From assembly GCA_016707705.1 (NCBI GenBank), contig JADJHD010000020.1:8918-72917 (forward strand): a DNA stretch of 64,000 bases. The letters run 5' to 3'. Every line of letters starts with the position of its first letter. Position 1 is the stretch's first letter. This document shows, in pieces, positions 28,040 to 52,515 of the stretch. The position numbers were made by a program, and so were the translations under genes. Origin of the DNA: Bacteroidales bacterium. Its GTDB lineage: Bacteria; Bacteroidota; Bacteroidia; Bacteroidales; UBA4417. Below the pieces are notes generated by a model. That model saw only the letters and a program-made list of their open reading frames with translations, was not told the DNA's origin and searched no databases.

Positions 28040-28130
28040 AATTATGCCAATGAGTTAGTCACATAAAAATTAACTCAATGGCAAGAAAAAAATCATTTTG
28101 AAACCTGAACTAAAAAAGACAACTATTCCC

Positions 28131-32602: not shown

Positions 32603-32819
32603 TTGAGGTTTAGTTCTTTGATTTCCAAGAGGATGCTTCATTTTCCGAGGCATCCTCTTTTACAATCAATCGCAATGATTTTGCAGTGCAAGATTGGTGT
32701 TGATTGAATCATGACTGAGAGACAAAGCCGCAAAAAGTTAATACTAACAATATCAGCATCAGCCTAATTACCCTGACCAAGAAAATTCGGCAAAAATCAA
32801 TTTACACTGATTCAAAGTG

Positions 32820-35324
32820 ATGAAAATTTCGAAACACTACACCCTCCTCCTATTCCTGTTTCTTATTAACTTACTAACCAATGCCACCGTGCCTGATAGA
32901 ACAGGCTGGTGGAAATTCGACATCCCCTCCAATCTGCAGAAAGCTGAGTCAGGCTATGGCGCTGACCTTATCCTTTCCGGTTCGCATTCTTCGGCTTCTG
33001 GTCCGGAGGCTGGAAATGGGGCTACAAAAATAGGAGCCGGAAGTTATTATAAGATGCAGCATCTGATTCCTGGCAATGGAGGTGGAAGCTTTGTAAATGA
33101 ATATACTCTTCAATTCGATTTTAAGGTATCATCAACAACAGCCTGGCACGCATTCTTCCAAACGTCTCAAGGCAACAGCAATGACGGAGACTTTTTTATT
33201 AATCCAAGCGGTAATATAGGTGTTGCTGCTGTAGGTTACAGTGCTTATTCGGTAAACCCAAATGAATGGTACCGACTGATTATATCAGTTAAAAACGGAA
33301 GTTTTTTTAATTGCTACCTTGACGGACAATTTCTTACAGTTGGTAATGTTCAGGATGTCGATGGACGTTTCTCCCTTGAAAATCTATTGCTCATTTTCGC
33401 TGATGATGATGGCGAAGATTCAGAAATATACTGTTCCGAACTTGCCATCTGGGATCAAGCCCTGAATACCGAACAAGTCAATGAATTAGGAGGCTTCGGA
33501 CATAACGCCGGACTCTTTCTGATGACCAGGATCCCCTATCTTCAAGCCCCTGGTAAAACCTCAATGACAGTTTGCTGGCATGATGTTGCTTCAACCAATA
33601 CCCGGGTGAGCTATGGAATAGATAGTACTCTGGGAACCGTAATAAATGGCACCAATGAACTCATTAGCGACCCATTTCGCTGGCATTCAGTCTCATTAAC
33701 TGGTCTTCAGGCAAATACCCGATATTATTACAAGGTTGGAAGCGGAGATGGAGAATCCGGAATCTATTCCTTTAAAACCTTGCCGGATAACACCTATAAT
33801 GGCAAGCTTCGTTTCATTCTCCTAAGCGATACACATGCCTCTGACACAACAATGGCGGGCAAGGTATTGAGAGCTGCCCGGCAAAAAATAATAGATTCCT
33901 ATGGCCCGGATATCGAAAATCATCTGAATGGAATACTACATTCCGGAGATATCGTTGTCAGTGGTGATGTACCAAAACAATATTCCATGCAGTATTTTCA
34001 GCCATTATCGGCATTATCAGCTAATGTCCCAACTATGGTTGTTGCCGGAAATCACGAACTGGAAAGTCCTTATTTCTATCAATACCTGAAAATGGATGAA
34101 TTATCGGCATTCCCACAGAATCCAGCTCTGAAAGAGAAAATCTGGCAGATTCAGTATGGGAATGCGCTGTTTATTGGCCTTAATACAAACATTTCTGATC
34201 AGTATGGAGAAACACAGGCAAACTGGCTTGACTCCAGGCTTAACGAAGCAGAAACTGATGCCAGTATTGATTTTGTATACATTTTCTTCCACCATCCCCC
34301 TATTTCAGAGCTATGGATTGTTGGAGGAACTGAATATGTAAATAGCAGATTACTACCTGTAATGAAAAAATACTCCAAGGTGCGGGAAATTCACTATGGT
34401 CATACCCATGGATATGAGAGAGGTACAGAAACATCTGAAATACCCGGCGGAGATATACGAATGATATGTAATGGAGGCGGTGGTGGCGGACTTGATCCAT
34501 GGGCTGCAGGTGAAAATCAGGACTATAATGATATCCATATCTGCATAAGCAACTATTTCTTTCAGCTGCTTGAAATAGATGTAGAAGATCATTCATACCA
34601 AAGTTCAATCTTTAGCCTAGGTACTCTATCTAAACCCAAGAACTCCGAACTAATCGACCAATGGCATAAGGTTAAAAATCAATCCAGGCCAACAAAACCA
34701 TCCATAGAAAGCATCACATCAACAGAAAATTACATTGAATTCACAAGCTCTGTATTCTCCGGAATTGACTCAATTATGTCTGTAAGGTTTCAAGTCATCG
34801 ACAGCAGCATGATTCAATCTGTTGCAATAGATTCCACAATAAACTGGACTAACACTTATGGTGTCGACTCTAATGGAAATCCGATAGACCTAAATAAGTA
34901 CATCAATCTTTATCAAAACAGAATTAACAAGTCGCAATTATCAGAATCGGGAAAATATTATTTAAGGGTTCAATACAGGGATCAAAATTTGAACTGGAGC
35001 AACTGGTCTGAGATGACTGCATTCAACCCACTTGGGGTGAAACAAAATCCAAAAGTGGAGCATGGCTATCTATTGGAACAGAACTACCCTAACCCCTTCC
35101 GTGAAAAAACTACCATTTTATACAGCCTGCCCAAAAGTGGTGACGTCAGTTTTTACATCTATGATATCAACAACAAGTTGATTGAGGTAATTCAGCAGGG
35201 TAAAAAGTCTAAGGGAACACATGAATTTATTTACTCACCCCGGAATCTTAATACTGAAACCTTGTTGTATGAAATGAAAGTCAACAACATCGTCATTTCA
35301 AGAAAAATGATTTGCTCAAAGTAA
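32820..35324 (+). CDS. T9SS-sorted fusion protein: LamG-like module, purple-acid-phosphatase-like metallophosphoesterase and a C-terminal sorting domain
   Basis: Has the same N-terminal module as the upstream gene. Metallophosphoesterase motifs follow: LLSDTHA, GDIV, GNHE, FFHHPP, GHTHGYER. The tail reads NYPNPFREKTTILYSL. Confidence 0.75.
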   Translation: MKISKHYTLLLFLFLINLLTNATVPDRTGWWKFDIPSNLQKAESGYGADLILSGSHSSASGPEAGNGATKIGAGSYYKMQHLIPGNGGGSFVNEYTLQFDFKVSSTTAWHAFFQTSQGNSNDGDFFINPSGNIGVAAVGYSAYSVNPNEWYRLIISVKNGSFFNCYLDGQFLTVGNVQDVDGRFSLENLLLIFADDDGEDSEIYCSELAIWDQALNTEQVNELGGFGHNAGLFLMTRIPYLQAPGKTSMTVCWHDVASTNTRVSYGIDSTLGTVINGTNELISDPFRWHSVSLTGLQANTRYYYKVGSGDGESGIYSFKTLPDNTYNGKLRFILLSDTHASDTTMAGKVLRAARQKIIDSYGPDIENHLNGILHSGDIVVSGDVPKQYSMQYFQPLSALSANVPTMVVAGNHELESPYFYQYLKMDELSAFPQNPALKEKIWQIQYGNALFIGLNTNISDQYGETQANWLDSRLNEAETDASIDFVYIFFHHPPISELWIVGGTEYVNSRLLPVMKKYSKVREIHYGHTHGYERGTETSEIPGGDIRMICNGGGGGGLDPWAAGENQDYNDIHICISNYFFQLLEIDVEDHSYQSSIFSLGTLSKPKNSELIDQWHKVKNQSRPTKPSIESITSTENYIEFTSSVFSGIDSIMSVRFQVIDSSMIQSVAIDSTINWTNTYGVDSNGNPIDLNKYINLYQNRINKSQLSESGKYYLRVQYRDQNLNWSNWSEMTAFNPLGVKQNPKVEHGYLLEQNYPNPFREKTTILYSLPKSGDVSFYIYDINNKLIEVIQQGKKSKGTHEFIYSPRNLNTETLLYEMKVNNIVISRKMICSK

Positions 35325-35495: not shown

Positions 35496-36266
35496 ATGAT
35501 GAAACATTTTTCGATTACTCTAGTCTTCTTCTTCCTTCTAATTGCAGTGAACCTGAATGCACAACCCAGGGAAGGATATAAATTGGTATGGGAAGATGAG
35601 TTTGACCGGCCTGCACTTGATTCATTATCATGGAGTCATGAACTGGCAGAACCCGGATGGGTGAACAACGAATTGCAGAGATATACGAATGAGAATATTG
35701 AGATTTCAGATGGTGCCCTTAAAATAATTTCAAGAAGGGAGAATAATGAATATACCTCTGCCAGATTAATTACCCGGGACAAACGAACTTTCACTTACGG
35801 TCTCTTTGAAATCAAGGCTAAACTTCCTGAAGGCACTGGCACATGGCCGGCACTATGGATGCTGGGTCAGAATATTGGCAAAGTAGGTTGGCCTGCATGC
35901 GGTGAATTGGATATCATGGAACACGTTGGGAAGCACCCTGATTTTATTCACTCTACTGTCCATAATCCTTCAGGATATGGTGCCACTCCATACACAGGAA
36001 TCATTCAGATTGAAGATCCCTTTAACACCTACCATATCTACAGCATGGAATGGACCAAGGATTTTGTTGATTTCTATACTGATGGTAAGCTAGTGTATCA
36101 TTATCAGCCTGAAATTAAAAATGCTGATAACTGGCCATTTGACAAACCCTGCTATTTCATTTTCAATATAGCCATAGGTGGAAACTGGGGTGGGCCAGTT
36201 GTTGACGACAAGATATTTCCGGTAACAATGACTGTTGATTGGATCAGAGCATTTGAGAAAAAATAA
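35496..36266 (+). CDS. GH16-family beta-glucanase (laminarinase-like)
   Basis: The GH16 catalytic signature E-x-D-x-x-E is present as GELDIMEHVG, with WPALWMLG upstream. Has a signal peptide; 256 aa. Confidence 0.85.
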   Translation: MMKHFSITLVFFFLLIAVNLNAQPREGYKLVWEDEFDRPALDSLSWSHELAEPGWVNNELQRYTNENIEISDGALKIISRRENNEYTSARLITRDKRTFTYGLFEIKAKLPEGTGTWPALWMLGQNIGKVGWPACGELDIMEHVGKHPDFIHSTVHNPSGYGATPYTGIIQIEDPFNTYHIYSMEWTKDFVDFYTDGKLVYHYQPEIKNADNWPFDKPCYFIFNIAIGGNWGGPVVDDKIFPVTMTVDWIRAFEKK

Positions 36267-38479: not shown

Positions 38480-39211
38480 CTACTTAACTTGTATCTCAGC
38501 ATCCTCCAAAATAATCTTAAAGAAATATCCTGCACCGAAATCCTTGTTCAGACTTACCTTGCCTTTAACAGTCAGAATCTGATCTAAAGAAGCTGTATCA
38601 TCGGTAGTAAAAGTAAGGTCAAAATTTCCTGAAAAATCACTTCCATCCTGAATATGAACCCAGTTCTTACCCATAATCATTGGGTTGTATTTAGTAACCT
38701 TACCTGATATGGTTACTACCTGATTTGCATATTGGGTATGATTTTCATAAAGTTCAGCAATTGTTATTCCTCCTTTGGCTTTTGGAACTGATGCATCAAT
38801 CTTTTCCGGGGCTTCCTGCTTTCTCTCTGCTGCAGGAGCAGCTGCGGTTTCATTGCCTGTTAATGGCTGATCACTGATATTCTGGACAAAAAATACGGTT
38901 TCGAAGGTCTTTCCAAGCTCCTTGCTTTCAAAGTTGTTCATCTCCAATGGGTTGGTGTAATAATAAACATCACCTTCCTTTGCTTCACGCTTTGTAACAG
39001 CAATCCAGCTTTCAGCTCCGCCTTCTTCCATCAACAGATAGGTATATTTGGTGGTTTGAAGAATTTCAACCACTTCACCTTTAAACACTCCTTCCGGAAG
39101 TTTTTCCTTTTCCGATTTCTTCTGTGAATTATTCCAGAACGGAACAGAAATAACTACGATACCGAAAACTATAAGTAAAATGGTTATGAGTTTTTTGGAG
39201 TTGATCTTCAT
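38480..39211 (-). CDS. Membrane-anchored protein with two OB-fold-like halves; paralogue of 50587..51360
   Basis: N-terminal TM helix. The C-terminal half ITIAELYENHTQYANQVVTISGKVTKYNPMIMGKNWVHIQDGS...KGKVSLNKDFGAGY aligns with 50587..51360. The pattern resembles bacterial OB-fold (YgiW-like) proteins, but this assignment is weak. Confidence 0.55.
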   Translation of the reverse strand: MKINSKKLITILLIVFGIVVISVPFWNNSQKKSEKEKLPEGVFKGEVVEILQTTKYTYLLMEEGGAESWIAVTKREAKEGDVYYYTNPLEMNNFESKELGKTFETVFFVQNISDQPLTGNETAAAPAAERKQEAPEKIDASVPKAKGGITIAELYENHTQYANQVVTISGKVTKYNPMIMGKNWVHIQDGSDFSGNFDLTFTTDDTASLDQILTVKGKVSLNKDFGAGYFFKIILEDAEIQVK

Positions 39212-39252
39212 TGTTTTCTTTTTATTTATTGACTTGATTAAAAAGTATAAAC

Positions 39253-40869
39253 CTAGAAACGCTTACTAAGGTTCACATAGACATTATTATAATTTTTCCC
39301 TTTTTCAAAAGTTCCTTCATAATTCAATGAACAGGAAAGCTTGCTCATGATGCGCCAGTTAAGTCCCAGTTCGCCCATATGCTGCCTTACAGCTGTTTCC
39401 TGACTTACAAAGGTATAATGTACCATTCTGTATCCCAGATCGGCATATACCTTGCCTTTGAAAATATCACGCGCAAACGACAACCCGTAAATATCACTGT
39501 TCAGATAGGAGGTTTCCATGATGGTCGCTGATAAGGTTGCAGAGGCATTCAGCCATGGGACTGCAGGAAATGTCAGATATCCATAGAGATTCTTACTGGC
39601 TCGTGAATCATTGGTACCGAGCCTGTATCCTCCATTGCATCCCACAGTGAAATGCTTTGTCCTGTAGTTTAACTGAGCATTGTAACCGGTTGTACTTGCA
39701 CTTTCCAGCAATCGCTGAATGAAATCCTTGTAGGTTTCATAGTAGATCACATTTTTTCTCTCGCTATACGACAGTGAAACACTAAATCTCTTTGTCACCC
39801 TGTATCTGACAGAAGCGTAGAGATTTGAGATCCTTGGTGATCTATCGTTCATCAGGATAGAATCCTGGCTGTTAAATACCTTATTATACAAATCCAACTC
39901 CATGGAACCAAAGAGTGTAATGTTCTTAACCGGTGTATTGGAATGCTGTATATAGGCAAATCTTCGGTCAGTGAGACCTGCATTTTTCTGTTCAACAAAT
40001 GCCAGAGATGTTTGGAAGGAACTCAATTTCCCAGAATGCTCATGATTGATATAGCCTCCGTACTGCAGCAAATTGAAGTTGAAACCATAATCCCTTGAAT
40101 CAGGACGACTCCCTGCTATAGCCCCAACAGTAAACTGACCAGCCTTGAATTCGTACTGAAGTCCATCTACTGCACCCATATTGGAAAGCCGTGGATTTAT
40201 TCTTCGTCCGATCCATATAGAGTTTTTGGGGTTGAGAGCATAATTAAAAGCCAGACTGTAGATCTTCAATCCGTTGAACAGATTCTGACTTATCAGATTC
40301 CAATCTCCCAATTTATGCGAGAATGTAACATAGGTTTCTGCGGAAAGCTTGCTCCCTCCAATATTCCTGTAATTGGAAACAAGAGTATAACGCAGCCGCT
40401 CCGATAAATCCGAATTGCTTGAAATACCAGTATAGGAGGCAACTGATAATCTTCCGGAAAAATCAGCTTTCTTTTTAGTTACCTGCACATCTGCTACTGA
40501 ATCCTTCACAATAAGTTTGGTCCTAGTCCCAGGAGTAACTTCTTCAGCAACACTTTCACTTGAAGTAGTAGGAACCAATCCTTTATGGGCCAATGTTTTA
40601 TCCCCAACTTTAAAGGTATTGCCATCCATGGGTGAACCAACACAGGAGATGGAAGATAGTTCTTCAACCTTGATACCGGGAACAAAACTTCCATTCTTAG
40701 AAATAAAGAGGGTATCCCCAGCTTTAAGGTTTTCAGTTGAAGTAAACTTGACATATACATGCTGACCGGTAACGAAAGTTACTGTTCCAACATTATCAGT
40801 ATCAAGTTCCTGGGAAAAGGCATAAACCCCAACCAGCATTAAGATGGCAAAAACTATTAAATGTTTCAT
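39253..40869 (-). CDS. Predicted outer-membrane beta-barrel protein, candidate porin partner of the cytochromes
   Basis: Signal peptide MKHLIVFAILMLVGVYAFSQ. Alternating hydrophobic beta-strand patterns run throughout. The C-terminus ...VYVNLSKRF ends in Phe. It starts 6 nt after the 960-aa cytochrome stops. Confidence 0.6.
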   Translation of the reverse strand: MKHLIVFAILMLVGVYAFSQELDTDNVGTVTFVTGQHVYVKFTSTENLKAGDTLFISKNGSFVPGIKVEELSSISCVGSPMDGNTFKVGDKTLAHKGLVPTTSSESVAEEVTPGTRTKLIVKDSVADVQVTKKKADFSGRLSVASYTGISSNSDLSERLRYTLVSNYRNIGGSKLSAETYVTFSHKLGDWNLISQNLFNGLKIYSLAFNYALNPKNSIWIGRRINPRLSNMGAVDGLQYEFKAGQFTVGAIAGSRPDSRDYGFNFNLLQYGGYINHEHSGKLSSFQTSLAFVEQKNAGLTDRRFAYIQHSNTPVKNITLFGSMELDLYNKVFNSQDSILMNDRSPRISNLYASVRYRVTKRFSVSLSYSERKNVIYYETYKDFIQRLLESASTTGYNAQLNYRTKHFTVGCNGGYRLGTNDSRASKNLYGYLTFPAVPWLNASATLSATIMETSYLNSDIYGLSFARDIFKGKVYADLGYRMVHYTFVSQETAVRQHMGELGLNWRIMSKLSCSLNYEGTFEKGKNYNNVYVNLSKRF

Positions 40870-40875
40870 AAGCCT

Positions 40876-43758
40876 TTAATCGATCCTGATATTGCCGGGT
40901 TTGAAATGATCGCTGTTACCATTAGGATGACAGTTCAGGCAGGCTGCACTGTTATAGGAATATCCGCTAACACCCTGATGATCGTTATTGGTTGATGATT
41001 GAGGGTGGCAGGATGTTGTACAGGTAAATTCTCCAAAATTTGATGGATTTGGATGGCAATCAGAACAAGTATTCCATTCACCGTTATGCTGCCCGGAATA
41101 AATCGGGAAATACTGTGAGTCATGATTGAAGGTCGATGGCTGCCAGGAAGATTGCGTATGGCAATCCTGACAGCTGGTAGGGAATTGAGCAGTTTGATGA
41201 TCAGGGTCGTTAGTCTGGTTATAATTGTTAATATGGCATCCTGCACAGGTGTTTGGAGTAGAATTGTAGTTGCCATTATGACAATCGCCGCATTGGTTTG
41301 CAATCGAAACGTGGGCTCCGGCCAAAACATAATAATTGTTGTGAATTGGGAAAGTAGCTGGTGCCCATCCCGGATTTGTAGTATGACAAGTTGCACATTG
41401 ATTCGGAATGCCTAATGCCTGATGATTGGGATTGGCACTTTGATTATAAGCCGACTGGTGACAACCCTCACAATTGGTAGGCGTATTCGCATAGCCATTC
41501 ACATGGCATAGGCTGCAGTTGGTTATGGAAGCATGAGCCCCGGTAAGTGGATAAACATTGTTATGATTGAATGTTGAAGGCACCCATGCAGTCTGTGAAT
41601 GGCAGCTTTGGCATTCAGTTGAAAACTGTGAAGTCTGATGATTAGGATTCGTGGTTTGGTTATAATCATCGGAATGACATCCAAAACAAGTATTTGGAGT
41701 ACTGGTATAATTCCCCTGATGGCAGGCAGCACAATTTGTAGCAATAGCTGTATGAGCTCCCTGAATGACGTAATAATTGCTGTGAGTCGGGAAACTTGCC
41801 GGCGTCCAGCCCGGACCAGTGGTATGACATTGTGCACAATCACTGGAAATGCCTATTCCATTATGATTTGGATTTGATGTTTGATTATAGTTATTAATAT
41901 GGCAATTGGCACAGACTGTTGTGGTGCCGCTGTACCCATTAGAATGACATGAAGCACAGTCATTGATAGCATGTCCTCCGGTTAATGGAAAATTCGAGCT
42001 TGAATGATTAAAGCTTCCTTCAGATGAACCTGTAGGATGACATTCAAAACAAGCCACACTGTTGTATGCATACCCTCCTACTCCCTGATGTTCATCATCG
42101 GTATCAGCCTGATTGTGTTCATGGCAATCAATGCAACTGTATAATGCATAGTTTGCAGGATTGGTATGACACTCAGAACAGCTGTTCCATTCACCATTGT
42201 GTTTCCCTGAATAAATTGGGAAATATTGTCCATCATGGTTAAAGGTTGAAGGCTTCCATGCTGTTGAATTATGGCAATCCTCACAGGTAGTAGGGAACTG
42301 AGCACTCACATGCGGAGGATCGGTTGATTGGGTAAAATCAGTCTCATGGCATGCAAAGCACGTATTTGGAGTGTTCTGATAATTACCATTATGGCATTTG
42401 GCGCATTCATTAGCTATGGTTAAATGTGCTCCCTCCAGGACATAATAATTGGCATGGGTTGGGAAACCAGCTGGTTTCCATCCCGGATCTGTGGTATGAC
42501 AAGCCTTGCAATCTTCAGAAATGCCGGCTGCTGCATGATTTGGATTTGAAGTTTGATTGAAGTTGTTAATATGACAACTTGAACACTCCATGGATGTGTT
42601 CGAATATCCATTGGTATGACAATCAGTGCATCTGACCGTTACATGTGCCCCGGTTAGCGGAAAATGGGTTGAACTATGATTGAAAGCCCCATCAGTTGAA
42701 CCTGTTGGATGACAAGCATAACATGCAAGTGAGTTGTAATCATACCCGCTTACTCCTCCGTGTTCATCGTCAACCTTGCTTTGCCTGTGTTCATGGCAAT
42801 CCGTACAGCTGAATTGTCCGTAGTCATTGGGATTGGTATGGCATTCTCCGCAACTTTCCCATTCTCCCTTATGATTCCCTGAATAAATCGGGAAATAGGA
42901 TGCATCATGGGTTGTAAAACTGGCTGGTTTCCAACCCGGATCAAGCGAATGGCATAATTTGCAGTCAGTTGAAAAATCAAGTGAAATATGATTGGGATTC
43001 TGTGCAGAAGCATAGTCAGGCTGGTGACAACTGATACATTCATTTGATAAGCCAGCGTATGTGCCAGATGTATGACATTTGGCGCAATCAGTTGTTTCGT
43101 GTCCACCGGTAAGCGGGAAAAAGTTATGGTTCACTCCTGCCCCAGTCCAGGTGAAAGCATTGATATTATGGCACTCTGTACAATTGGTCGAATACTGATT
43201 TGCTATATGATCAGGATGTTTGGCAGCTTCAAAGTTTTGCCTGTGGCAATCATAGCATTCTATTCCCAATGGATCAAATCTGAGTCCTGAGGCTGAGCCT
43301 CCTGCAGATGCAGCAGGAAAAAGGTTAGTGTGACAGCTCTTGCAGTCAGTTGCAGCATGTGCTCCCAACAGTGGAAACCTTCCCTGCTGATGAAGTTGGG
43401 TAACATTACTGACCACCCAGGAATTGGGTGTATGACAGCGGGAACAATCTGGTCCGACTGTCTGCTCATGTACATCAATATGGCACTTATTACATTCTGT
43501 TGGAGCATTTGTAAAATTCATTGCAGCGTGGCAATCCTTGCAGTTTGCTGACTTATGCTGCCCGATCAACGGGAAACTGGTGCTTGAATGATTGAATCCG
43601 ATGGATTTTGCATCCACTTTCCAACTGTCAGTTTTATGACAGTCCATGCAGCTCATCTTAAAGTTCTCACCATGCGGCGACTTCTGCGCAAACAGAGGTG
43701 CAGCTGTAAAAACCCAGCTCAGGATTAGCAGCAATACTAACGATGACAATCTTCGCAT
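40876..43758 (-). CDS. Giant multihaem c-type cytochrome, about 37 haem-binding sites
   Basis: Signal peptide MRRLSSLVLLLILSWVFTAAPLFAQ. I counted 36 CxxCH motifs plus one CxxxCH (CTTSCH) in 960 aa. Internal modules are repeated. Confidence 0.9.
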   Translation of the reverse strand: MRRLSSLVLLLILSWVFTAAPLFAQKSPHGENFKMSCMDCHKTDSWKVDAKSIGFNHSSTSFPLIGQHKSANCKDCHAAMNFTNAPTECNKCHIDVHEQTVGPDCSRCHTPNSWVVSNVTQLHQQGRFPLLGAHAATDCKSCHTNLFPAASAGGSASGLRFDPLGIECYDCHRQNFEAAKHPDHIANQYSTNCTECHNINAFTWTGAGVNHNFFPLTGGHETTDCAKCHTSGTYAGLSNECISCHQPDYASAQNPNHISLDFSTDCKLCHSLDPGWKPASFTTHDASYFPIYSGNHKGEWESCGECHTNPNDYGQFSCTDCHEHRQSKVDDEHGGVSGYDYNSLACYACHPTGSTDGAFNHSSTHFPLTGAHVTVRCTDCHTNGYSNTSMECSSCHINNFNQTSNPNHAAAGISEDCKACHTTDPGWKPAGFPTHANYYVLEGAHLTIANECAKCHNGNYQNTPNTCFACHETDFTQSTDPPHVSAQFPTTCEDCHNSTAWKPSTFNHDGQYFPIYSGKHNGEWNSCSECHTNPANYALYSCIDCHEHNQADTDDEHQGVGGYAYNSVACFECHPTGSSEGSFNHSSSNFPLTGGHAINDCASCHSNGYSGTTTVCANCHINNYNQTSNPNHNGIGISSDCAQCHTTGPGWTPASFPTHSNYYVIQGAHTAIATNCAACHQGNYTSTPNTCFGCHSDDYNQTTNPNHQTSQFSTECQSCHSQTAWVPSTFNHNNVYPLTGAHASITNCSLCHVNGYANTPTNCEGCHQSAYNQSANPNHQALGIPNQCATCHTTNPGWAPATFPIHNNYYVLAGAHVSIANQCGDCHNGNYNSTPNTCAGCHINNYNQTNDPDHQTAQFPTSCQDCHTQSSWQPSTFNHDSQYFPIYSGQHNGEWNTCSDCHPNPSNFGEFTCTTSCHPQSSTNNDHQGVSGYSYNSAACLNCHPNGNSDHFKPGNIRID

Positions 43759-45344
43759 TTGATTTGATCCAGTTTATAGAGTATGAAAGTAACACCTTGC
43801 TGTTCAACAGTTTTATGGCATTTCCCGCAAGGAAGCTTATTATGCTTTCCATCAAGCTTGAACCTGGTATTGTTGTGGTCAAAGCCATCAGCAGGAAGGA
43901 AGGAGGACTGATTATGGCACCTGCTGCAGTCAGAAGTACCATCAATAACAAATTGATTCTGATGTATATCTTTATGGCATGAACTGCAGGATGTCAATAA
44001 TCCGGAGAATCGCTGGCTGTCATGACCTTTTGCCTGCTTGTTGAAATGACAATCGCGGCAGGTCTTTTTCTGGTGGGCTCCCTTTAAGGCAAAACGTGTG
44101 CTGTCGTGATTAAATTGCACCAAACTCCATTTCGAGGGTGTATGGCAATTCTGGCAACCATTAACAGCATAGTACTTTTCACTGATCAAACCCTTGTGAA
44201 TATCGTCATGGCAATCAGCGCATACCTTTCCTATATTCTTGAATTTCCACTTATCGGTTTTCTTGTGACAAGCAAAACATGGTGTTGCAAGATGCGCGCC
44301 CTGCAAGGGATAAATAAGCTGGTGCTTCTCAATTGAATAGGATGATCCGGGAAATCCATTTACTGAGTGGCATTCGGAACAATCAGGTGAAATTTTATTG
44401 CGTGTGAACTGTCCTTCATGATAATCAACATGGCAATCCCTGCAGTTCTTATGATTCAACGGAGTTGTGAGTTTAAGCTTATGGCAGGATTTGCAGTTAG
44501 TATTCTGGTGTTTACCTTCGAGCTTAAAATCAGTTTTGTTATGATCAAATCCCTTTACTCCGCCACCTACAGCAAATGATTCTGTATTATGGCAATCAGC
44601 ACACTTTTGACCGAACTTATTATTATGGACATCCATATGGCAACTGGAGCAGGAGGAGAACTGCAAACCCTTGAACTCCTGATACTTTTGTCCATTCTTG
44701 TTCGAGATCTTATGACATTCAACGCAAGCCACTGACTGATGCTTGCCTGTCAGCTGATATTTTGCCTTCCGATGATCGAATTTGGGTGCAGGCTTAAATT
44801 TTTCGTTGTTATGGCAATCAGCACAATTCGAAGAGAGCGTCTTTTGATGATAATCGGCATGACAAGCCTGGCAATCGGTTTTCAATCCAAGGTAAGTTGT
44901 TTTCTTAGCTTTTAATTTAACATCCTGAATGAACTCCGGCTTATGACAATCCTCACATTTCTTTTTACTGTGAGCTCCGCTCAGGGTATAACCTGTTAAC
45001 TTATGATCAAATTTTGCTTTATCAAATTTAATGATCTGGAAATTAACCCCATGATGATCATTATGACATGCAGCACATTGTTTCGTTTTAACTCCTGCCG
45101 ACGAATGATACCCTTTGTTCTGGTCAATTCTTGTCTTGATGGCTGTATGACAGGCCAGACATTTTGCATTGGTAACTTTTTCGCCAAGTATATGACATTT
45201 CGTGCAGTTCGACATTCCCTCAAGGTGGGAATGCACTTTTGCAAGATCTCCCGGAGAAATCTGAGCAAGAAGTTTTTGATTAGCAATCAATGAGATGATT
45301 GCAATCAATGTAAACTTTAGGAATTTGCTTAAGATTGATTTCAT
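43737..45344 (-). CDS. Multihaem c-type cytochrome, 20 CxxCH
   Basis: Has a signal peptide. 20 CxxCH motifs in 535 aa, set in repeated F(D/N)H..H...L.G.H....C..CH units (c3/c7-like). Its 3' end overlaps the next gene's start by 22 nt. Confidence 0.9.
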   Translation of the reverse strand: MKSILSKFLKFTLIAIISLIANQKLLAQISPGDLAKVHSHLEGMSNCTKCHILGEKVTNAKCLACHTAIKTRIDQNKGYHSSAGVKTKQCAACHNDHHGVNFQIIKFDKAKFDHKLTGYTLSGAHSKKKCEDCHKPEFIQDVKLKAKKTTYLGLKTDCQACHADYHQKTLSSNCADCHNNEKFKPAPKFDHRKAKYQLTGKHQSVACVECHKISNKNGQKYQEFKGLQFSSCSSCHMDVHNNKFGQKCADCHNTESFAVGGGVKGFDHNKTDFKLEGKHQNTNCKSCHKLKLTTPLNHKNCRDCHVDYHEGQFTRNKISPDCSECHSVNGFPGSSYSIEKHQLIYPLQGAHLATPCFACHKKTDKWKFKNIGKVCADCHDDIHKGLISEKYYAVNGCQNCHTPSKWSLVQFNHDSTRFALKGAHQKKTCRDCHFNKQAKGHDSQRFSGLLTSCSSCHKDIHQNQFVIDGTSDCSRCHNQSSFLPADGFDHNNTRFKLDGKHNKLPCGKCHKTVEQQGVTFILYKLDQIKCEDCHR

Positions 45345-45367
45345 GATTATGTCGTCTCTTCTGGCTG

Positions 45368-46701
45368 TTAGTTATGCTTAAGCAAAGCTTCACCGTATTT
45401 GCGGGTGATGATAACCCCGGCCTTCTTTAGGAATTCAATAGGTAGTTCTCCTCCAGCAAATATGAATACCAGATCATTCTTAATCATTATCTCCTCTGCA
45501 TTCTTAATGCCTTTCAGCACTACCGATTCCTTTAGAATATTCACAGGCAAAGTTTCGAAGATGACCTTCAGCTTCCCATCATTCATAGCTTGCTTAATGT
45601 TCTCGGCATTTTTAGGCTTTAACCGGCTAAACACATCACCACGATAGGAAAGCGTAACCTTGTTTTGATCGCATAGCAAAAGTGCGGATTCAATGGCTGA
45701 GTCTCCTCCTCCAACAACCAGGACTTCCTTTCCAGAAATTTCTTCAGGTTCAAGTAAGCGGTATGCTACTTTCTCCATCATTTCTCCCGGGACTCCAAGT
45801 TTCCTGGGAGTTCCCCTTCTGCCTACTGCCAGTAAAACAGTATTTGATGTAAGGATCTTCCCATTTCCGGTTTCGACCCTAAAAACTCCGTTTTCCTGTG
45901 TAATAGACTCTACTTTTGAGTTTTCCCTGATATTAATCCCATTCTTCAATAGGGCTTCATTCCATAAATCGAGAAGCTCAGGTTTGGAGGTTTCAAACAG
46001 CTTAATCTTACCTATAAAGGAAGATCCATTGCTGAAGTCATTACAATTTTCTGCCTTGGGAAAGTGTACACAGTACCTCCAAGAGTATCCTGTTCAAGAG
46101 TGGTGAATCGAAGATTGTGCTTTTTTGCAGTCAGGGAGGCAGAGATTCCTGCAGGCCCCGCTCCCACTATGATGAGGTCAAACTCAGCATGATGGGGCAA
46201 TTTGTGATACTTTGCGATATTTTCAACAGCCTGTTTACCCTGCTCTACAGCATTCTTGATAAGGCCCATTCCTCCCAGTTCACCGGCGATATAAATGCCA
46301 TTGACGTTGGTCTCAAAATTCTGATTGACATGTGGAAGGTCTACACCTCTTTTCTCAGTTCCAATACACAAAGTGATGGCCTGAGTTGGACAAGCATGAA
46401 AGCAGGCTCCATGTCCTATGCATTTTGAGGCATTGATGGTAGTTGCCTTACCATCCTTGATTCCTATGATATCTTTCTCAGGGCAGGCTGACACGCATGC
46501 ACCGGTACGAATGCAGCTATTGATATCAATAACAGGATGAAGTGACACCGGTTCAAACAGGCCTTCCTGTTTCGCCTTATTAATTTTCTCTTCAACAATC
46601 TTCGATTCCCGCTTTTGCTTTCGGAGATATATCCACACAACGAGGATGCAAAAAAGCGCAACTCCTCCATAGATTGCAATTTGCTCAAGGGCAGATTCCA
46701 T
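45368..46701 (-). pseudogene. Membrane-anchored 2x[4Fe-4S] ferredoxin-domain / FAD-NAD(P) pyridine-nucleotide-disulfide-type oxidoreductase, split by a 1-nt frameshift near 46012-46022
   Basis: ORF 46012..46701 carries a TM helix, CIRTGACVSACP and CIGHGACFHACP, and the GxGxxG motif DLIIVGAGPAG. It stops after ...AMDLPL. The next frame reads FIGKIKLFETSKPELLDLWNEALLKNGINIRE and runs straight into ORF 45368..45949, which carries the second Rossmann motif LVVGGGDSAIESA. Confidence 0.8.
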
Positions 46702-46705
46702 AGTT

Positions 46706-47575
46706 TTAGAATATCCAGCGGTAACCGAAAGTAATGGTTACTGCTACGTGAATAATCATGATTACAAGCATTACAAGTGCAAATGGCAAATGAGCTACAT
46801 GCCAGTATTTGAATAAGTTTTGCATGGTGGTTAAACGCTCTATCCTATGATTCAGTGATATTTCCGATTTAACGGATTTAATAATGCTTTTCACCTGATC
46901 ATTGGGGACTTGCTTATCTCTAAGGAGTTTCCTGACATTTCGAAGGTTACGTCTCTCCTTTCCGTATTGACGAATTATCCGGACGAAAAAATTCTCATCC
47001 ATTCTCTTTATACCAACCTGAGTCAGTGCCTCTATTTGCCGGGCACTTTCTTCATCCACCTGAACTGCCATCTGAATGGTTGCATTCATTTCACCCTTAA
47101 GTTCACGGATCTCATTCAAACTCAGTGCACGTCCCTCTATACTTCTTGGTATCTGAATATAGATAAACCTTCCAATAATGCCACTGAGGAATACCGCAAC
47201 CATACTCCAGAAGCTAATGGCGACAATACCTCCAAACTTAAAGGAAGTATGGAACAAAACCAGAATCGGACCAAGAGTACAGAGAAAAATGTGAAACTCA
47301 AGCCAATGTTTCAGAATTCCAAGTCGGCCAAGGCGTCTGACTCTTTTTCTGACCATATAAATAAGGACGCCAAATATCATAAAGAGAGATCCAATAATTC
47401 CCACTCCATGTCCCAAACTTCCACTAGGTTTCAGTTCAGAATGGTCAGCGTGAAAGAATCTTTCTTCAAGTCCGGTATTGTAATAGGAGTAACCTTTCTG
47501 AATAAGCAGAAAGAGTGCCGTTGCTACGAGCAGCGACATAATGGCAATGTAAATACCGTGTGTTACCCTTGACAT
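46706..47575 (-). CDS. Polytopic membrane protein with intramembrane His pairs (possible b-haem binding), unknown family
   Basis: Five predicted TM helices. His residues lie inside TM3 (KHWLEFHIFL...LVLFH) and TM5 (WHVAHLPFALVMLVIMIIHV). A ~115-aa charged helical cytoplasmic loop separates them. It is the first gene of the operon. Confidence 0.55.
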   Translation of the reverse strand: MSRVTHGIYIAIMSLLVATALFLLIQKGYSYYNTGLEERFFHADHSELKPSGSLGHGVGIIGSLFMIFGVLIYMVRKRVRRLGRLGILKHWLEFHIFLCTLGPILVLFHTSFKFGGIVAISFWSMVAVFLSGIIGRFIYIQIPRSIEGRALSLNEIRELKGEMNATIQMAVQVDEESARQIEALTQVGIKRMDENFFVRIIRQYGKERRNLRNVRKLLRDKQVPNDQVKSIIKSVKSEISLNHRIERLTTMQNLFKYWHVAHLPFALVMLVIMIIHVAVTITFGYRWIF

Positions 47576-47629: not shown

Positions 47630-47637
47630 CAAAGTTA
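47630..47637 (-). promoter_or_regulatory. -7 box (TAnnTTTG) candidate for the cytochrome operon
   Basis: Minus strand reads TAACTTTG, 55 nt upstream of the ATG at 47575. Confidence 0.3.
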
Positions 47638-48289: not shown

Positions 48290-48664
48290 ATGGATATTTC
48301 CGAATTATTTGAAGATGGCCGGAGCCACAAGAAACATTATTCCAAAAAGTCTGATTACAGATATCATCAAAAGGATAATCACTTCACACCAGAACACCAT
48401 CATGAACATTATGATGACAACTACAGTCGACCTCATAATAAACATGGCTTTTCAGGTCACAGGAGCAATGACTTTTTGATGCGAGTTGCTCAGCATCTGA
48501 AAGCTAATCCCAGGCTTAGGTTGCTGATTATTGTAATCTGCCTCATCCTGGCAATTCTTATCATCGGACTAATAGTAATGATACTGCCCGCAATACTCTC
48601 TTTCCTTGAGCGATTGCTTTCAGGGGATTTGGTTAAGTCTTTTCAAAATCTTCTAAAAGACTAA
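48290..48664 (+). CDS. His-rich small membrane protein (putative metal-binding)
   Basis: The N-terminal 60 aa are rich in His, Lys and Asp (HKKHYSKK..YHQKDNHFTPEHHHEHYDD..HNKHGFSGH). A single C-terminal TM helix follows. It lies directly upstream of the CDF transporter. Confidence 0.55.
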   Translation: MDISELFEDGRSHKKHYSKKSDYRYHQKDNHFTPEHHHEHYDDNYSRPHNKHGFSGHRSNDFLMRVAQHLKANPRLRLLIIVICLILAILIIGLIVMILPAILSFLERLLSGDLVKSFQNLLKD

Positions 48665-48677
48665 TACCCGCTGAAAA

Positions 48678-49535
48678 ATGGAAAAAGAGAAAAAGTCCGT
48701 AGCAGGTTGGTCAGTGGTAGCAGCTGTGTTCCTTACAGGTTTCAAGCTTATTGTCGGGCTATTTACCGGAAGCTTGGGAATCCTGTCGGAAGCATTGCAT
48801 TCCGGCCTTGACCTGGTTGCAGCTGTTATAACCTATTTTTCTGTTAGAATCTCCGATAAACCAGCAGATATAAAACACCCATACGGACATGGAAAGGTTG
48901 AGAATCTTTCTGCCCTGCTCGAAACATTGCTATTGATAATTACATGCTTTTGGATAATCTATGAAGCTGTTGAGCGACTTGCGTCCGGGAAAACACATAT
49001 CGAGGTTAATATCTGGAGTTATATTGTTGTCGTGACATCCATCGTGGTGGACTATACCAGGTCCCGGGCATTGTACAGAACGGCCCGAAAATACAACAGT
49101 CAGGCTCTTGAAGCGGATGCATTGCATTTCTCAACAGATATCTGGAGCTCTTCCGTAGTATTGATAGGCCTGATCTGCGCCAACTTTGGCTACCATATAG
49201 CTGATCCAATTGCAGCACTAGGCGTTGCAGCAATAGTGCTGGTTGTTTCTTTCAAACTGGGAGAAAGAGCAGTAAATGTACTTTTAGATACAAGTCCAGC
49301 TCCGGCGAGGGAAGAAATAGCTGCTTTATTGGACGACACAACAGGAATATTAGCATACAATGACCTTAAAGTCAGGGTATCAGGTGCTGATACATTTGTA
49401 AATGTAACCCTGAAATTTGAACCTTCACTTAGCCTGGAAGCTGCACACAGGCTTTCTGATACTATTGAAGAACAGATTCATCAAAGGATTGAGCGCTGCA
49501 ATGTTCATATCCATTATGAACCAGCATCAAGTTAA
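48678..49535 (+). CDS. Cation diffusion facilitator (CDF) family divalent-metal efflux transporter
   Basis: Six TM helices with CDF motifs (SEALHSGLDL, HFSTDIWSS) and a C-terminal cytoplasmic domain; 285 aa. Confidence 0.8.
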   Translation: MEKEKKSVAGWSVVAAVFLTGFKLIVGLFTGSLGILSEALHSGLDLVAAVITYFSVRISDKPADIKHPYGHGKVENLSALLETLLLIITCFWIIYEAVERLASGKTHIEVNIWSYIVVVTSIVVDYTRSRALYRTARKYNSQALEADALHFSTDIWSSSVVLIGLICANFGYHIADPIAALGVAAIVLVVSFKLGERAVNVLLDTSPAPAREEIAALLDDTTGILAYNDLKVRVSGADTFVNVTLKFEPSLSLEAAHRLSDTIEEQIHQRIERCNVHIHYEPASS

Positions 49536-49562
49536 ATTTTTCGATAACTAAAATTCTGCAAA

Positions 49563-50270
49563 ATGAGAACTTACGTTTGGAGTCTGCCAACCAGAATATT
49601 TCATTGGTTGCTCGTAATTGGAGTTGTACTGGCTTATGTGCTTGGAGAGGAAGAGGAGCTTTTAAATCTGCATTCCTCCATCGGATATGCCCTGGGTATT
49701 TTAATGCTGTTCCGAATTCTTTGGGGTCTTGCAGGACCTTTATATTCAAGATTCCGGGATTTCCCCATCAGCTTGAAAAATCTGATGTTCTTTTTCAAAA
49801 CCTTAGGTAATAGAAAATCCGGGTTCATTGGTCATAATCCGGCAGCCTCACTGATCATGCTGGCAATTATACTGGATGTTTTGTGCATTGTTGGAACGGG
49901 AATAATAATGATGTCATCAAGAGGAGAAGGTCTCTTCGGAAATTTCACCCCGGGATTTGACCCTGAAACCTATAAGGAATTGCATGAAGTATTTGTCAAC
50001 TTCCTGATAATCATAATTATTATGCACCTTTTGGGACTGGCAACCGACTTCTTTTTCCATCCCAAGGACAGAACAATACTTTCAATGTTCAATGGTTATA
50101 AAAATCTTGAAGGACCTAAAGTAAAAGTGAACAGTATCCAATGGATACTTGCAATAATCGGAATAACTGCAGCATTTACAATAATACCCTATTCACTGCT
50201 AAACCAGCAAATCAATCCTGAAAATAACCAATCTGAACAGTCAGAATTTGAAGAAATGGATGAGGATTGA
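49563..50270 (+). CDS. Cytochrome b (b561 / Ni-Fe-hydrogenase b-type subunit family) membrane protein
   Basis: The N-terminus WSLPTRIFHWLLVIGVVLAYVLG is typical of this family. Four TM helices carry conserved His residues. Confidence 0.7.
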   Translation: MRTYVWSLPTRIFHWLLVIGVVLAYVLGEEEELLNLHSSIGYALGILMLFRILWGLAGPLYSRFRDFPISLKNLMFFFKTLGNRKSGFIGHNPAASLIMLAIILDVLCIVGTGIIMMSSRGEGLFGNFTPGFDPETYKELHEVFVNFLIIIIIMHLLGLATDFFFHPKDRTILSMFNGYKNLEGPKVKVNSIQWILAIIGITAAFTIIPYSLLNQQINPENNQSEQSEFEEMDED

Positions 50271-50586: not shown

Positions 50587-51360
50587 ATGAAAACATCAGA
50601 AAAAAACAAGAGTCAAAATAAACGTATTTTACTGATAACCATGAGCCTGGCTTTAGTTATCCTTACATTTTCATGTAGTCATGGAAGTACCGCCTCAATC
50701 AATCTCAAGGAGAAGGGAATATTTCAGGCAACTGTTAGTGAAGTACTGCAATCAAAAGGATACACCTATTTGAAGGTTCAGGAGGAGAAAACGGAGAAAT
50801 GGCTTGTCGTTCCAACTATCAATATCAGCATCGCATCAAAGGTTTATTACAGAGAAGGTTTCAGGATGACAGAGTTTTCAAGCAAGGAGTTGAACAGGTC
50901 TTTCAGTGAGGTATACTTTCTTGAAACGATTGCAACCGATCCTGCACAATTATCAATTGATACTTTGCCTGTTCCCTCTAAATCTGTGCATCAGGAAATG
51001 AATTCGCCTGCAGCACAGGAAGATACTGTTATCAACAATCCGAATCAGGTTCCAATTTCTGACGGCAACAAGATTACTATTGAAAGTATATACAGAAATA
51101 AAGAAACTCTAAACGGTAAACTTGTGGTGATAAGTGGTAAAGTGACAAAATTCAATGAACGCATCATGGGAAAAAACTGGATCCATATTCAGGATGGCAG
51201 CAGCTTTGACAAATATAATGACCTCACTGTCACCACCAGGGAAACAGTAAAAGTCGGAGAAACCGTAAAACTCCAGGGGAAGTTGGTGTTAAACCAGGAT
51301 TTCGGATACGGATATTCCTATGAAATACTTCTCGAGGAAGCCATAATAATTACACAATAG
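50587..51360 (+). CDS. Lipoprotein with two OB-fold-like halves; paralogue of 38480..39211
   Basis: Lipobox ...LTFSC. Both halves align with 38480..39211, for example ISGKVTKFNERIMGKNWIHIQDGS...QGKLVLNQDFGYGY. Confidence 0.55.
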   Translation: MKTSEKNKSQNKRILLITMSLALVILTFSCSHGSTASINLKEKGIFQATVSEVLQSKGYTYLKVQEEKTEKWLVVPTINISIASKVYYREGFRMTEFSSKELNRSFSEVYFLETIATDPAQLSIDTLPVPSKSVHQEMNSPAAQEDTVINNPNQVPISDGNKITIESIYRNKETLNGKLVVISGKVTKFNERIMGKNWIHIQDGSSFDKYNDLTVTTRETVKVGETVKLQGKLVLNQDFGYGYSYEILLEEAIIITQ

Positions 51361-52414: not shown

Positions 52415-52429
52415 TGGCGATTGATTTGA
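52415..52429 (+). promoter_or_regulatory. Sigma-54-like -24/-12 element TGGC-N7-TTGA upstream of the NHL / 12-haem genes
   Basis: TGGCGATTGATTTGA has correct -24/-12 spacing. It overlaps the listed TTG start at 52426, which argues for the ATG at 52516. Confidence 0.35.
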
Positions 52430-52515
52430 TAAATCGTAGCATGAAATTTGCACAATACCCTGAGCACTATAAAAAACTCATTACTACAAGTGTTTACTGC
52501 CCAACCTCAGAATAC

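Follow-up and report, generated by a model that had tools for sequence, protein, structure and literature searches.

The porin–cytochrome (PCC) systems described most closely resembling the locus reported here are PCC3 and PCC4, which combine a porin, a periplasmic and an extracellular cytochrome and an inner-membrane protein of about 300 aa with five transmembrane (TM) helices (PMC5566968). In PCC3 the median haem numbers are 21 for the periplasmic and 34 for the extracellular cytochrome (PMC5566968), with published ranges of about 21-27 and 10-85 respectively (PMC5566968, PMC10734462). In PCC3 and PCC4 this inner-membrane protein carries SGXXG on TM4 and WX3HX13H on both TM3 and TM5, and was likened by He et al. 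to the ferric-reductase domain, in which two b-haems are bound (PMC5566968). The definition of PCC3 comes from Alpha-, Beta- and Gammaproteobacteria, with Sideroxydans lithotrophicus ES-1 as the reference (PMC5566968). Here, a cluster of six genes (g1 to g6; Table 1) is described in a Bacteroidales bacterium (assembly GCA_016707705.1, contig JADJHD010000020.1, positions 8,918 to 72,917), and this whole stretch of 64,000 nucleotides is referred to as the window. The genes encode an inner-membrane protein (g1), an FeS-flavoprotein (g2), two multihaem cytochromes (g3 and g4), a predicted outer-membrane barrel (g5) and a small anchored accessory protein (g6).

Judged by its genes and motifs, the cluster is a PCC3-like porin–cytochrome cluster and as a kind of system is not categorically new; the variant appears to be distinct and widespread, and its NADPH oxidase (NOX)-like, NAD(P)H-linked entry module appears to be undescribed. 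On balance it is considered probable, if only modestly so, that the cluster is a PCC3-type trans-envelope conduit with an inner-membrane input resembling a split NADPH oxidase or ferric reductase and fed by cytoplasmic NAD(P)H. A first-pass annotation of the window had read the six genes as a complete conduit with a different parts list from known systems and no characterised equivalent. The parts are indeed present, but g2 is frameshifted in the window, and the PCC3/PCC4 signature was already published, although neither has been characterised experimentally, and the statement that no equivalent has been characterised still stands.

Comparison with described systems and distribution of the cluster

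The open reading frame (ORF) listing and the motif counts agree with the six-gene, minus-strand operon of the first-pass annotation in coordinates, strand and spacing, the intergenic gaps from g1 to g6 being 4, 23, −22, 6 and 41 nt. They also agree on the adjacent 20- and 37-haem cytochromes; that many haem motifs in two neighbouring genes (about 57 in total) is not attributable to chance. None of the models for NapC/NirT, ImcH/CbcL, MtrA/B/C or the Geobacter Ext proteins was matched at its cut-off by any of the six proteins in Pfam and NCBIfam, and g1, g5 and g6 had no match at threshold to any model in these two collections.

The likeness to PCC3, as taken from its published description, covers the combination of a porin with two giant cytochromes (20 and 37 haems here) and the make-up of the extracellular cytochrome, which is repeat-rich and rich in S, T, A and G in PCC3 and is paralleled by g4, with its trihaem repeats and its richness in N, S, T and A. 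The inner-membrane protein g1 fits the PCC3/PCC4 description exactly in length (about 300 aa), in the number of its TM helices (five), in SGXXG and in both copies of WX3HX13H, and in subgroup II of PCC4 an Fe-S protein gene also adjoins that of the inner-membrane protein (PMC5566968). The two differ in host, PCC3 being proteobacterial and the present cluster belonging to Bacteroidota, in gene order, and in the porin, which has up to 42 predicted TM regions in PCC3 and about 22 strands in g5. Furthermore, the published description of PCC3 has no flavoprotein and a quinone link is assumed, whereas here an NAD(P)H-type FeS-flavoprotein is an obligate neighbour.

Shewanella MtrCAB follows the same logic as that proposed for the cluster, a barrel in the outer membrane being combined with one multihaem cytochrome in the periplasm and another cytochrome on the outer side, and the fold matches of g5 include MtrB (6r2q_B). 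However, g5 has no match to the MtrB_PioB family of MtrCAB, MtoAB and PioAB in Pfam, and MtrB has 26 strands. The DmsE/MtrA model TIGR03508 scores 39.7 and 28.9 bits here against a cut-off of 192.2, no Cytochrom_NNT (NapC/NirT) domain, as in CymA, was matched in the six proteins, and there is no lipoprotein decahaem of the MtrC type. MtrCAB has 10 + 10 haems and menaquinol input, whereas the cluster has 20 + 37 and a proposed NAD(P)H input. The Geobacter OmbB-OmaB-OmcB, ExtABCD, ExtEFG and ExtHIJKL systems likewise set a barrel beside periplasmic and outer cytochromes, and a further likeness is that both cytochromes of the cluster are composed of c7/c3-like domains; they differ in that the Ext models are matched only below threshold and that the cluster has no ImcH/CbcL-like protein and no lipoprotein outer cytochrome. 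The first-pass annotation had likewise noted no entry of the NapC/NirT or ImcH/CbcL type and no lipoprotein outer decahaem, and the signal peptides of g3 and g4 are without a lipobox cysteine.

In a scan of one genome per GTDB species, a relative of g5 was found to be encoded in at least 537 species genomes, of which the best 80 were taken for analysis of their loci. All 80 are Bacteroidota metagenome-assembled genomes (MAGs), as expected from the Bacteroidota-type host that had been proposed, and the carriers among them include Bacteroidales, Lentimicrobiaceae, Salinivirgaceae, Prolixibacteraceae, Draconibacterium, Marinilabiliales and Cyclobacteriaceae. Using tblastn with the window proteins, the order g1-g2-g3-g4-g5 on one strand was found in all 57 loci with enough upstream DNA, and the remaining 23 loci, in which g1 and g2 were not found, all have under about 4.6 kb of sequence upstream of g5. 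No catalytic reductase, and likewise no quinol dehydrogenase, is a conserved neighbour across the related loci.

Nine members of the g1 family from other phyla, located on long contigs, were examined as a distant sample. In all nine, the gene directly upstream of g1 encodes an FeS-flavoprotein and the gene directly downstream a multihaem cytochrome, in agreement with the first-pass proposal of a flavoprotein and a b-type-like membrane module as the inner-membrane entry. The flavoprotein is of the g2 type in four loci (Fer4 + Pyr_redox, 434 aa) and of an unrelated type in five (FAD_binding_6 + NAD_binding_1 + Fer2, 447-468 aa), the first two of these latter domains being FNR-type FAD and NAD(P)-binding families; its N-terminus is hydrophobic in all six sequences read. 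The downstream cytochrome either has 20 haems in about 540-570 aa or is far larger (35-60 haems where counted), and retains the SPG..L...H..LEG start. An unannotated protein of 437-560 aa that ends in F is encoded just downstream in five of the nine loci. By gene neighbourhood, the conserved unit is thus an NAD(P)H-type FeS-flavoprotein, g1 and a periplasmic multihaem cytochrome, and since the flavoprotein family is swapped, by non-orthologous replacement, while the neighbourhood is unchanged, it would be the cytoplasmic pyridine-nucleotide, flavin and Fe-S function that matters to g1. The arrangement of these loci suggests that the inner-membrane module has been combined with different outer-membrane modules.

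Four of the distant loci have further features. In L089 (344-6223) and L093 (1-6395), the trio of flavoprotein, g1 and cytochrome has no adjacent barrel and lies back-to-back with a Uet-like cluster encoding an NHL protein, a small cytochrome, a SurA-like peptidyl-prolyl isomerase, a 609-aa protein, a second NHL protein and a large cytochrome. In L083 (10998-15530) and L088 (9046-13890) the two cytochromes are apparently fused into one protein, of 1510 aa and 60 haem motifs in the former and of 1614 aa and 35 motifs in the latter, and a protein of 437-455 aa ending in RF follows; the g1 homologues of these two loci resemble proteins named as Acidobacteria.

Clusters that are probably of this kind have been encountered before in Bacteroidota. 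A 'giant PCC cluster' with adjacent 61- and 20-haem cytochromes and a porin was reported from Lentimicrobium in 2026 (PMC13013709), and putative unclassified PCCs were reported from Bacteroidetes MAGs of lake metagenomes (PMC6344600; bioRxiv 2020.04.01.018762). Passages of these reports that deal with the clusters speak of a porin and cytochromes only, and not of an inner-membrane b-type protein, a flavoprotein or how widely the family is distributed, with 'no synteny to any characterized PCC' (PMC13013709; PMC6344600; bioRxiv 2020.04.01.018762). They very probably belong to the same family as the present cluster: the 61 + 20 haems of the Lentimicrobium cluster fit the rule of 20 + (22+3n) set out below, as does the related locus L064, with a pair of 20 + 61 haems; several of the closest loci among the best 80 are from Lentimicrobiaceae MAGs. 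The Bacteroidetes_1 cluster, with six cytochromes and one barrel (PMC8258643), has another architecture and is not the same system. In the literature searched, no paper was found that describes the flavoprotein partner, the rule of a fixed 20 and 22+3n haems or the cross-phylum module.

The inner-membrane module, the cytochromes and the barrel

The g1 protein has five predicted TM helices and a charged, cytoplasmic helical insert at about residues 141-250. The histidine pairs noted within its helices in the first-pass annotation belong to the motifs WLEFH-x13-H (TM3) and WHVAH-x13-H (TM5), which together with SGIIG (TM4) are invariant among 34 homologues (residues W91, H95, H109, S131, G132, G135, W258, H262 and H276), and the same pattern persists in distant family members. 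There are more than 7000 homologous sequences, and the g1 profile matched 3097 clusters at 50% identity (E<=1e-3; 1.84 billion representatives searched). Among the matches listed, named members include Ca. Schekmanbacteria and Acidobacteriota, and no named proteobacterial member is present among those listed of the 3097 clusters. In Pfam, sub-threshold matches were found to DUF4405 in 28 of the 34 close family members and in 15 of the 22 distant ones, to Ferric_reduct (PF01794; 28-bit cut-off) in 13 of the 22 distant members with E-values down to 1.5e-4, and to cytochrome b561 (Ni_hydr_CYTB) in four of the close and four of the distant members. The gathering threshold of PF01794 was not reached in this set, g1 itself has no match to that family, and a search of the g1 profile against the sequences in the PDB gave nothing under E=1. 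The H-x13-H spacing is invariant on two non-adjacent TM helices and the gene for an NAD(P)H-type flavoprotein is always adjacent, and g1 is regarded here as a putative di-haem b cytochrome.

The flavoprotein g2 is composed of an N-terminal TM helix, a two-cluster ferredoxin domain (Pfam Fer4_10/Fer4_7) and an FAD/NAD(P)H domain of the thioredoxin reductase (TrxR) fold (Pyr_redox_3/Pyr_redox_2). The latter has no CxxC, with one cysteine in that half of the protein, and its closest solved structures are YpdA/Bdr (7a76, 7a7b) and the TrxR-type ferredoxin-NADP reductase (3ab1); a conserved SYR-x5-R follows the second GxGxxG dinucleotide-binding motif. The ferredoxin motifs CxxTxxCxxxCP and CxxHxxCxxxCP (residues 63-105; window about 46380-46520) are conserved in all 56 relatives compared. 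The earlier assignment of two [4Fe-4S] clusters is borne out as to the domain family but not as to the ligands, as each motif lacks the second cysteine and has only three; the clusters could therefore be [3Fe-4S] or have non-cysteine ligands such as histidine. As the TM helix is followed by positively charged residues (RKQKRESK) and there is no Tat motif, the redox domain of g2 is probably cytoplasmic.

In the window, g2 is not the single ORF that the first-pass annotation took it to be, although the anchor and the FeS and FAD/NAD(P) domains that it recognised are all present. It is split into two ORFs in different frames, 46012-46701 (229 aa) and 45368-~46009, by the loss of one T of a tyrosine codon between positions 46013 and 46012, which results in a TAG stop (46012-46014, minus strand). 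Relatives have a single ORF of about 445 aa that reads ...MDLPLYGK(V/I)KLFETSK... across this site. In L081, which was assembled independently from a different sample (Logan SRR28161541) and shares 99.66% identity over 4650 bp, the T is present and the site reads TTATATGGTAAG. There is no long homopolymer at the deletion site. As g2 is an intact single ORF in this near-identical assembly and in 56 of 57 related loci, its interruption is not a feature of the system, and the deletion would stem either from a fault in the assembly or from a mutation that arose very recently at strain level. It is unlikely that the conduit is inactivated in this strain by a real mutation of g2 in a locus that is decaying or phase-variable: the frameshift does stand in the sequence as given, but the independent assembly keeps the codon intact and the remaining genes of the cluster are all undamaged.

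Two groups of known systems resemble the combination of g1 and g2. NOX/FRE proteins and MsrQ of E. coli, which is reduced by the flavin reductase Fre, serve as comparison systems for the ferric-reductase domain. In common with them, g1 has two bis-histidine pairs 13 residues apart on two TM helices and would have a cytoplasmic NAD(P)H-flavin partner, which in five of the distant loci has the domains FAD_binding_6 and NAD_binding_1. The cluster differs from these systems in that PF01794 is matched below threshold and by distant members only, that g1 has five rather than six TM helices, that the flavoprotein is encoded separately, as an anchored polypeptide to which an Fe-S relay is added, and that the acceptor would be a multihaem chain, not O2, an Fe(III) chelate or MsrP. 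The Hmc, Tmc and Nhc complexes of sulfate reducers link the redox chemistry of periplasm and cytoplasm by means of a multihaem cytochrome c in the periplasm, a cytochrome b in the membrane and an Fe-S protein in the cytoplasm. A comparable set of parts is proposed here, and g3 has a weak, sub-threshold match to HmcA (E 9e-4); in contrast, the cluster has no HdrD/CCG-type subunit but a flavoprotein that includes an NAD(P)H domain, it has a barrel in the outer membrane and a second giant cytochrome besides, and outward flow is proposed.

Pfam matches of the cytochromes g3 and g4 are to Cytochrome_C7, c3 and MtrC/MtrF domain II/IV. They differ in composition, g3 being rich in lysine and g4 in N, S, T and A, and in how far their length is conserved. 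The homologue of g3 has 20 haem motifs in 56 of 59 loci (529-564 aa), and the N-terminal motif SPGxLxxxHxxLEGxxxCxxCH of the g3-type cytochrome next to g1 occurs in 61 of 63 loci and can still be recognised in other phyla. In g4, the spacing of the motifs repeats as 35/15/25 aa, each trihaem unit taking up about 75 aa (26 aa per haem); its single CxxxCH is at residue 913. Homologues of g4 have 16-67 haems across the 59 loci, and nearly all of the counts follow 22+3n (22, 25, 28, 31, 34, 37, 40, 46, 49, 55, 61, 64 and 67). A fixed number of 20 haems fits a fixed distance, that of the periplasm, and a trihaem polymer of unconstrained length fits a part that reaches beyond the outer membrane; by published estimates the 10 haems of MtrA span about 80-100 Å (PMC5566968). 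On reading the sequence of g4 no lipobox was found, and there is no type IX secretion system (T9SS) C-terminal domain among its Pfam matches. The extracellular placement of g4 is suggested by its variable length and its composition only, and threading through g5 would be the simplest model for how it reaches the surface.

There are at least 1828 homologues of g5, none of which is annotated, and all of the named ones are from Bacteroidota. The AlphaFold2 model, made with 40 homologues, has a predicted local distance difference test (pLDDT) score of 71.7 overall and mostly 80-92 in the barrel. In it, a disordered linker (residues 95-156) joins a small N-terminal beta domain (26-93) to the barrel of about 22 strands (157-538). 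A Foldseek search of the PDB gave 202 matches at E<=1e-3, of which the best 50 are all outer-membrane barrels, including FimD/PapC ushers, TonB-dependent receptors, porins and, at rank 13, MtrB. With its signal sequence, antiparallel barrel and C-terminal aromatic residue (...KRF), g5 is modelled as a barrel of the outer membrane, about 22-stranded, as had been predicted from its C-terminus. A possible ExtJ-like domain in g5 was rejected as a chance match: it scores 18 bits against 52.5 (E 0.003-0.004), overlies the signal-peptide region and occurs in one of 40 family members only.

Proposed electron path and the alternatives

In the proposed conduit, cytoplasmic NAD(P)H would reduce the FAD of the anchored g2, whose two Fe-S clusters would hand the electrons to two stacked b-haems of g1 and so across the inner membrane. 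The 20-haem g3 would dock on g1 and span the periplasm, and the 37-haem g4 would sit in or thread the g5 barrel and deliver electrons outside to an acceptor such as Fe(III) or Mn(IV) in minerals, humic matter, conductive particles or partner cells. Gene content, motifs, the modelled barrel fold, the synteny and the wide distribution are observed, and cofactor binding, the contacts between the proteins, the NAD(P)H donor, outward flow and the acceptor are inferred. Such a conduit would bypass the quinone pool and move negative charge outwards; export would be downhill and assisted by the membrane potential, and no energy would be conserved. A quinone bypass combined with outward movement of charge would make it mainly a sink for excess reducing equivalents and not a proton-pumping chain, the benefit being redox balancing in fermentative or anaerobic Bacteroidota. 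A wider claim is made tentatively, as it is judged to fall slightly short of probable: that the system is a quinone-independent, NOX-like trans-envelope NAD(P)H:extracellular-acceptor oxidoreductase, with a portable inner module and a 20-haem 'ruler' cytochrome, with carriers that number hundreds of species in Bacteroidota and extend to Acidobacteriota and further phyla.

Several points weigh against this proposal. For g1, all Pfam links to di-haem cytochromes are below threshold, the AlphaFold2 model consists of five long helices at low confidence (pLDDT 64), and a Foldseek search of the PDB with this low-confidence model gave no match at E<=0.001. The Fe-S motifs of g2 have three cysteines each, and its gene is frameshifted in the window. 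The barrel of about 22 strands, which would have to sheath a cytochrome, is smaller than the 26-stranded MtrB, and g4 has no recognisable signal for surface exposure, neither lipobox nor T9SS domain. No cultured carrier is among the matches inspected, and PCC3 itself is still 'functionally unverified' (PMC12442390). To these is added the published view that in PCC3 and PCC4 the inner-membrane protein is active with quinones, to which the first alternative appeals.

This alternative keeps the same hardware but takes g1 to be a quinol/quinone-active cytochrome b, with entry of electrons from menaquinol and the flavoprotein as an accessory or alternative input, a regulator or a repair partner. 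Di-haem b proteins of the cytochrome b561 type are often quinone-reactive, and the four distant g1 members that weakly match Ni_hydr_CYTB can be counted in its favour. He et al. read the inner-membrane protein as quinone-active by analogy with the cytochrome b of bc1 and of hydrogenase (PMC5566968), and the descriptions of PCC3 in Proteobacteria give four genes, none of them for a flavoprotein (PMC5566968, PMC10734462, PMC12442390). However, a flavoprotein gene is adjacent to g1 in all 57 Bacteroidota loci and all nine distant ones, and is exchanged for one of another NAD(P)H-type family, not lost, which would be hard to explain were the flavoprotein dispensable; nor was a quinone-site motif identified. 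Entry from menaquinol is therefore given only a minor share of the probability.

Inward flow, in which electrons from extracellular Fe(II), reduced humics, a cathode or Fe(0), or a syntrophic partner reduce NAD(P)+, is considered improbable. Multihaem wires are reversible in principle (PMC10734462), and PCC3 has been discussed as a candidate for Fe(II) oxidation and electron uptake, as an iron oxidase in Gallionellaceae (PMC5566968, PMC10734462, PMC12442390). Reduction of NAD(P)+ (about −320 mV) from Fe(II) or humics would however be uphill and would also be opposed by the membrane potential. The hosts are of the heterotrophic Bacteroidales type, with polysaccharide-utilisation genes in the window, and the loci inspected show no partner for carbon fixation or reverse electron transport.

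A function other than extracellular electron transfer (EET) is held to be just as doubtful as inward flow. The cluster would then be a periplasmic or surface redox system for a soluble or toxic substrate (O2 or reactive oxygen species, nitrite, sulfite, selenite or tellurite, chromate) or for reductive iron assimilation. NOX/FRE-type modules do reduce O2 or Fe(III) chelates elsewhere, g3 weakly matches the Geobacter selenite/tellurite cytochromes ExtN/ExtO (34 bits against a cut-off of 200), and genes for a CDF transporter and a cytochrome b561 diverge from the cluster in 12-13 close relatives. Against this, neither the cluster nor its surroundings contain a catalytic haem motif (such as CxxCK) or a molybdopterin or sirohaem subunit, the synteny of the barrel gene is strict, and 57 haems in repetitive c7-like wires, one of them of expandable length, would be costly and needless for a soluble substrate. 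A respiratory operon for a soluble substrate, which the first-pass annotation had named as one outcome that would overturn its reading, is rejected, with no catalytic subunit in the cluster or as a conserved neighbour.

Surrounding genes and implications

The accessory protein g6 has no match at threshold in Pfam, NCBIfam or the PDB, and comparison of its two halves gave no internal repeat. It had been described as anchored and OB-like; the N-terminal anchor is present, but the OB assignment comes solely from a sub-threshold match to tRNA_anti-like (E 0.047). A g6-like gene lies near the cluster in 34 of the 80 loci, on either side and in either orientation, and is thus an optional member. A paralogue with 36% identity (E 2e-48) is located 3 kb upstream of the cluster in the window, and as the g6-like genes of the 34 loci match both window copies, they would form a small anchored family linked to the cluster. 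Upstream of g1, TAACTTTG sits 54 nt before the start codon and fits TAnnTTTG, which we take to be the Bacteroidota −7 consensus; it is a weak candidate for the promoter of the operon. A scan of the window for sigma-70-type promoters and terminators gave counts at or below shuffle expectation, using a model that is uninformative for Bacteroidota.

Table 1. Coordinates of the cluster genes and of other features in the window.
Feature	Positions	Strand	Remarks
SusC-like/SusD-like pair	24674-29654	plus	1121 aa and 518 aa
Two large secreted proteins	29831-35324	plus	similar N-termini (VPDRTGWWKFD)
GH16 gene	35496-36266	plus	
g6	38480-39211	minus	243 aa; N-terminal anchor; accessory
g5	39253-40869	minus	538 aa; signal peptide; C-terminus NLSKRF
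g4	40876-43758	minus	960 aa; 36 CxxCH + 1 CxxxCH; Sec signal peptide
g3	43737-45344	minus	535 aa; 20 CxxCH; Sec signal peptide
g2	45368-46701	minus	FeS-flavoprotein; about 444 aa once repaired; interrupted here
g1	46706-47575	minus	289 aa; inner-membrane protein
TAACTTTG	47630-47637	minus	weak candidate promoter element
His-rich protein, CDF transporter and cytochrome b561	48290-50270	plus	divergent from g1
g6 paralogue	50587-51360	plus	257 aa
NHL beta-propeller	52426-53538	plus	overlaps next cytochrome gene
11-haem doubled-CXXCH cytochrome	53535-55208	plus	
HAMP histidine kinase	55236-56681	plus	
Sigma-54 response regulator	56720-58132	plus	
4-haem cytochrome	58510-59130	plus	
Second NHL protein	59255-60376	plus	
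Possible outer-membrane barrel	61003-62988	plus	661 aa; no Pfam match; C-terminus ...KLIRKF
8-haem cytochrome	62991-63908	plus	

Diverging from g1 are three genes, for a His-rich protein of 124 aa, for a cation-efflux transporter of the CDF type (PF01545 + ZT_dimer) and for a cytochrome b561 (PF01292). Of these, the genes for CDF and b561 hold this position only in 12-13 of the closest relatives, and they are also present in L081; a link to the handling of metals (Fe2+/Mn2+) is speculative. Further upstream of g1, between 52426 and 63908, is a second set of putative EET genes, whose composition is similar to that of Uet (undecahaem cytochrome, NHL protein and barrel) of Tenderiales and Gallionella (PMC10734462).

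On the other side of the cluster, the SusC-like and SusD-like pair was assigned by size, position and sequence ends only. One of the two large secreted proteins has purple-acid-phosphatase, metallophosphatase and laminin-G domains. Together with the GH16 gene, these proteins fit a polysaccharide-degrading Bacteroidota host, as far as their sequences indicate. The GH16, DUF5009 and esterase genes that flank the cluster in the window are not conserved across the related loci.

To our knowledge, every characterised Gram-negative EET pathway begins at a quinol dehydrogenase. A conduit fed by NAD(P)H, if true, would represent a different bioenergetic design, a redox-balancing sink and not a coupling site, and would be a fourth major entry to EET besides CymA, the quinol dehydrogenases of the ImcH/CbcL type and the flavin-based Ndh2 route of Gram-positives. 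It would provide a testable function for the 'conserved hypothetical' inner-membrane protein of PCC3 and PCC4, for the fixed count of 20 haems and for the modular count of 22+3n. If true, it would also provide many 'fermentative' Bacteroidota with a sink for electrons outside the cell, and would explain how abundant anaerobes of this phylum could donate electrons to iron minerals, humic substances or conductive particles, or be partners in interspecies electron transfer. Among the taxa concerned are the Lentimicrobiaceae, Prolixibacteraceae and Salinivirgaceae of lakes, sediments, digesters and groundwater, so that the finding would be relevant to the cycling of carbon, iron and methane and to bioelectrochemical systems.

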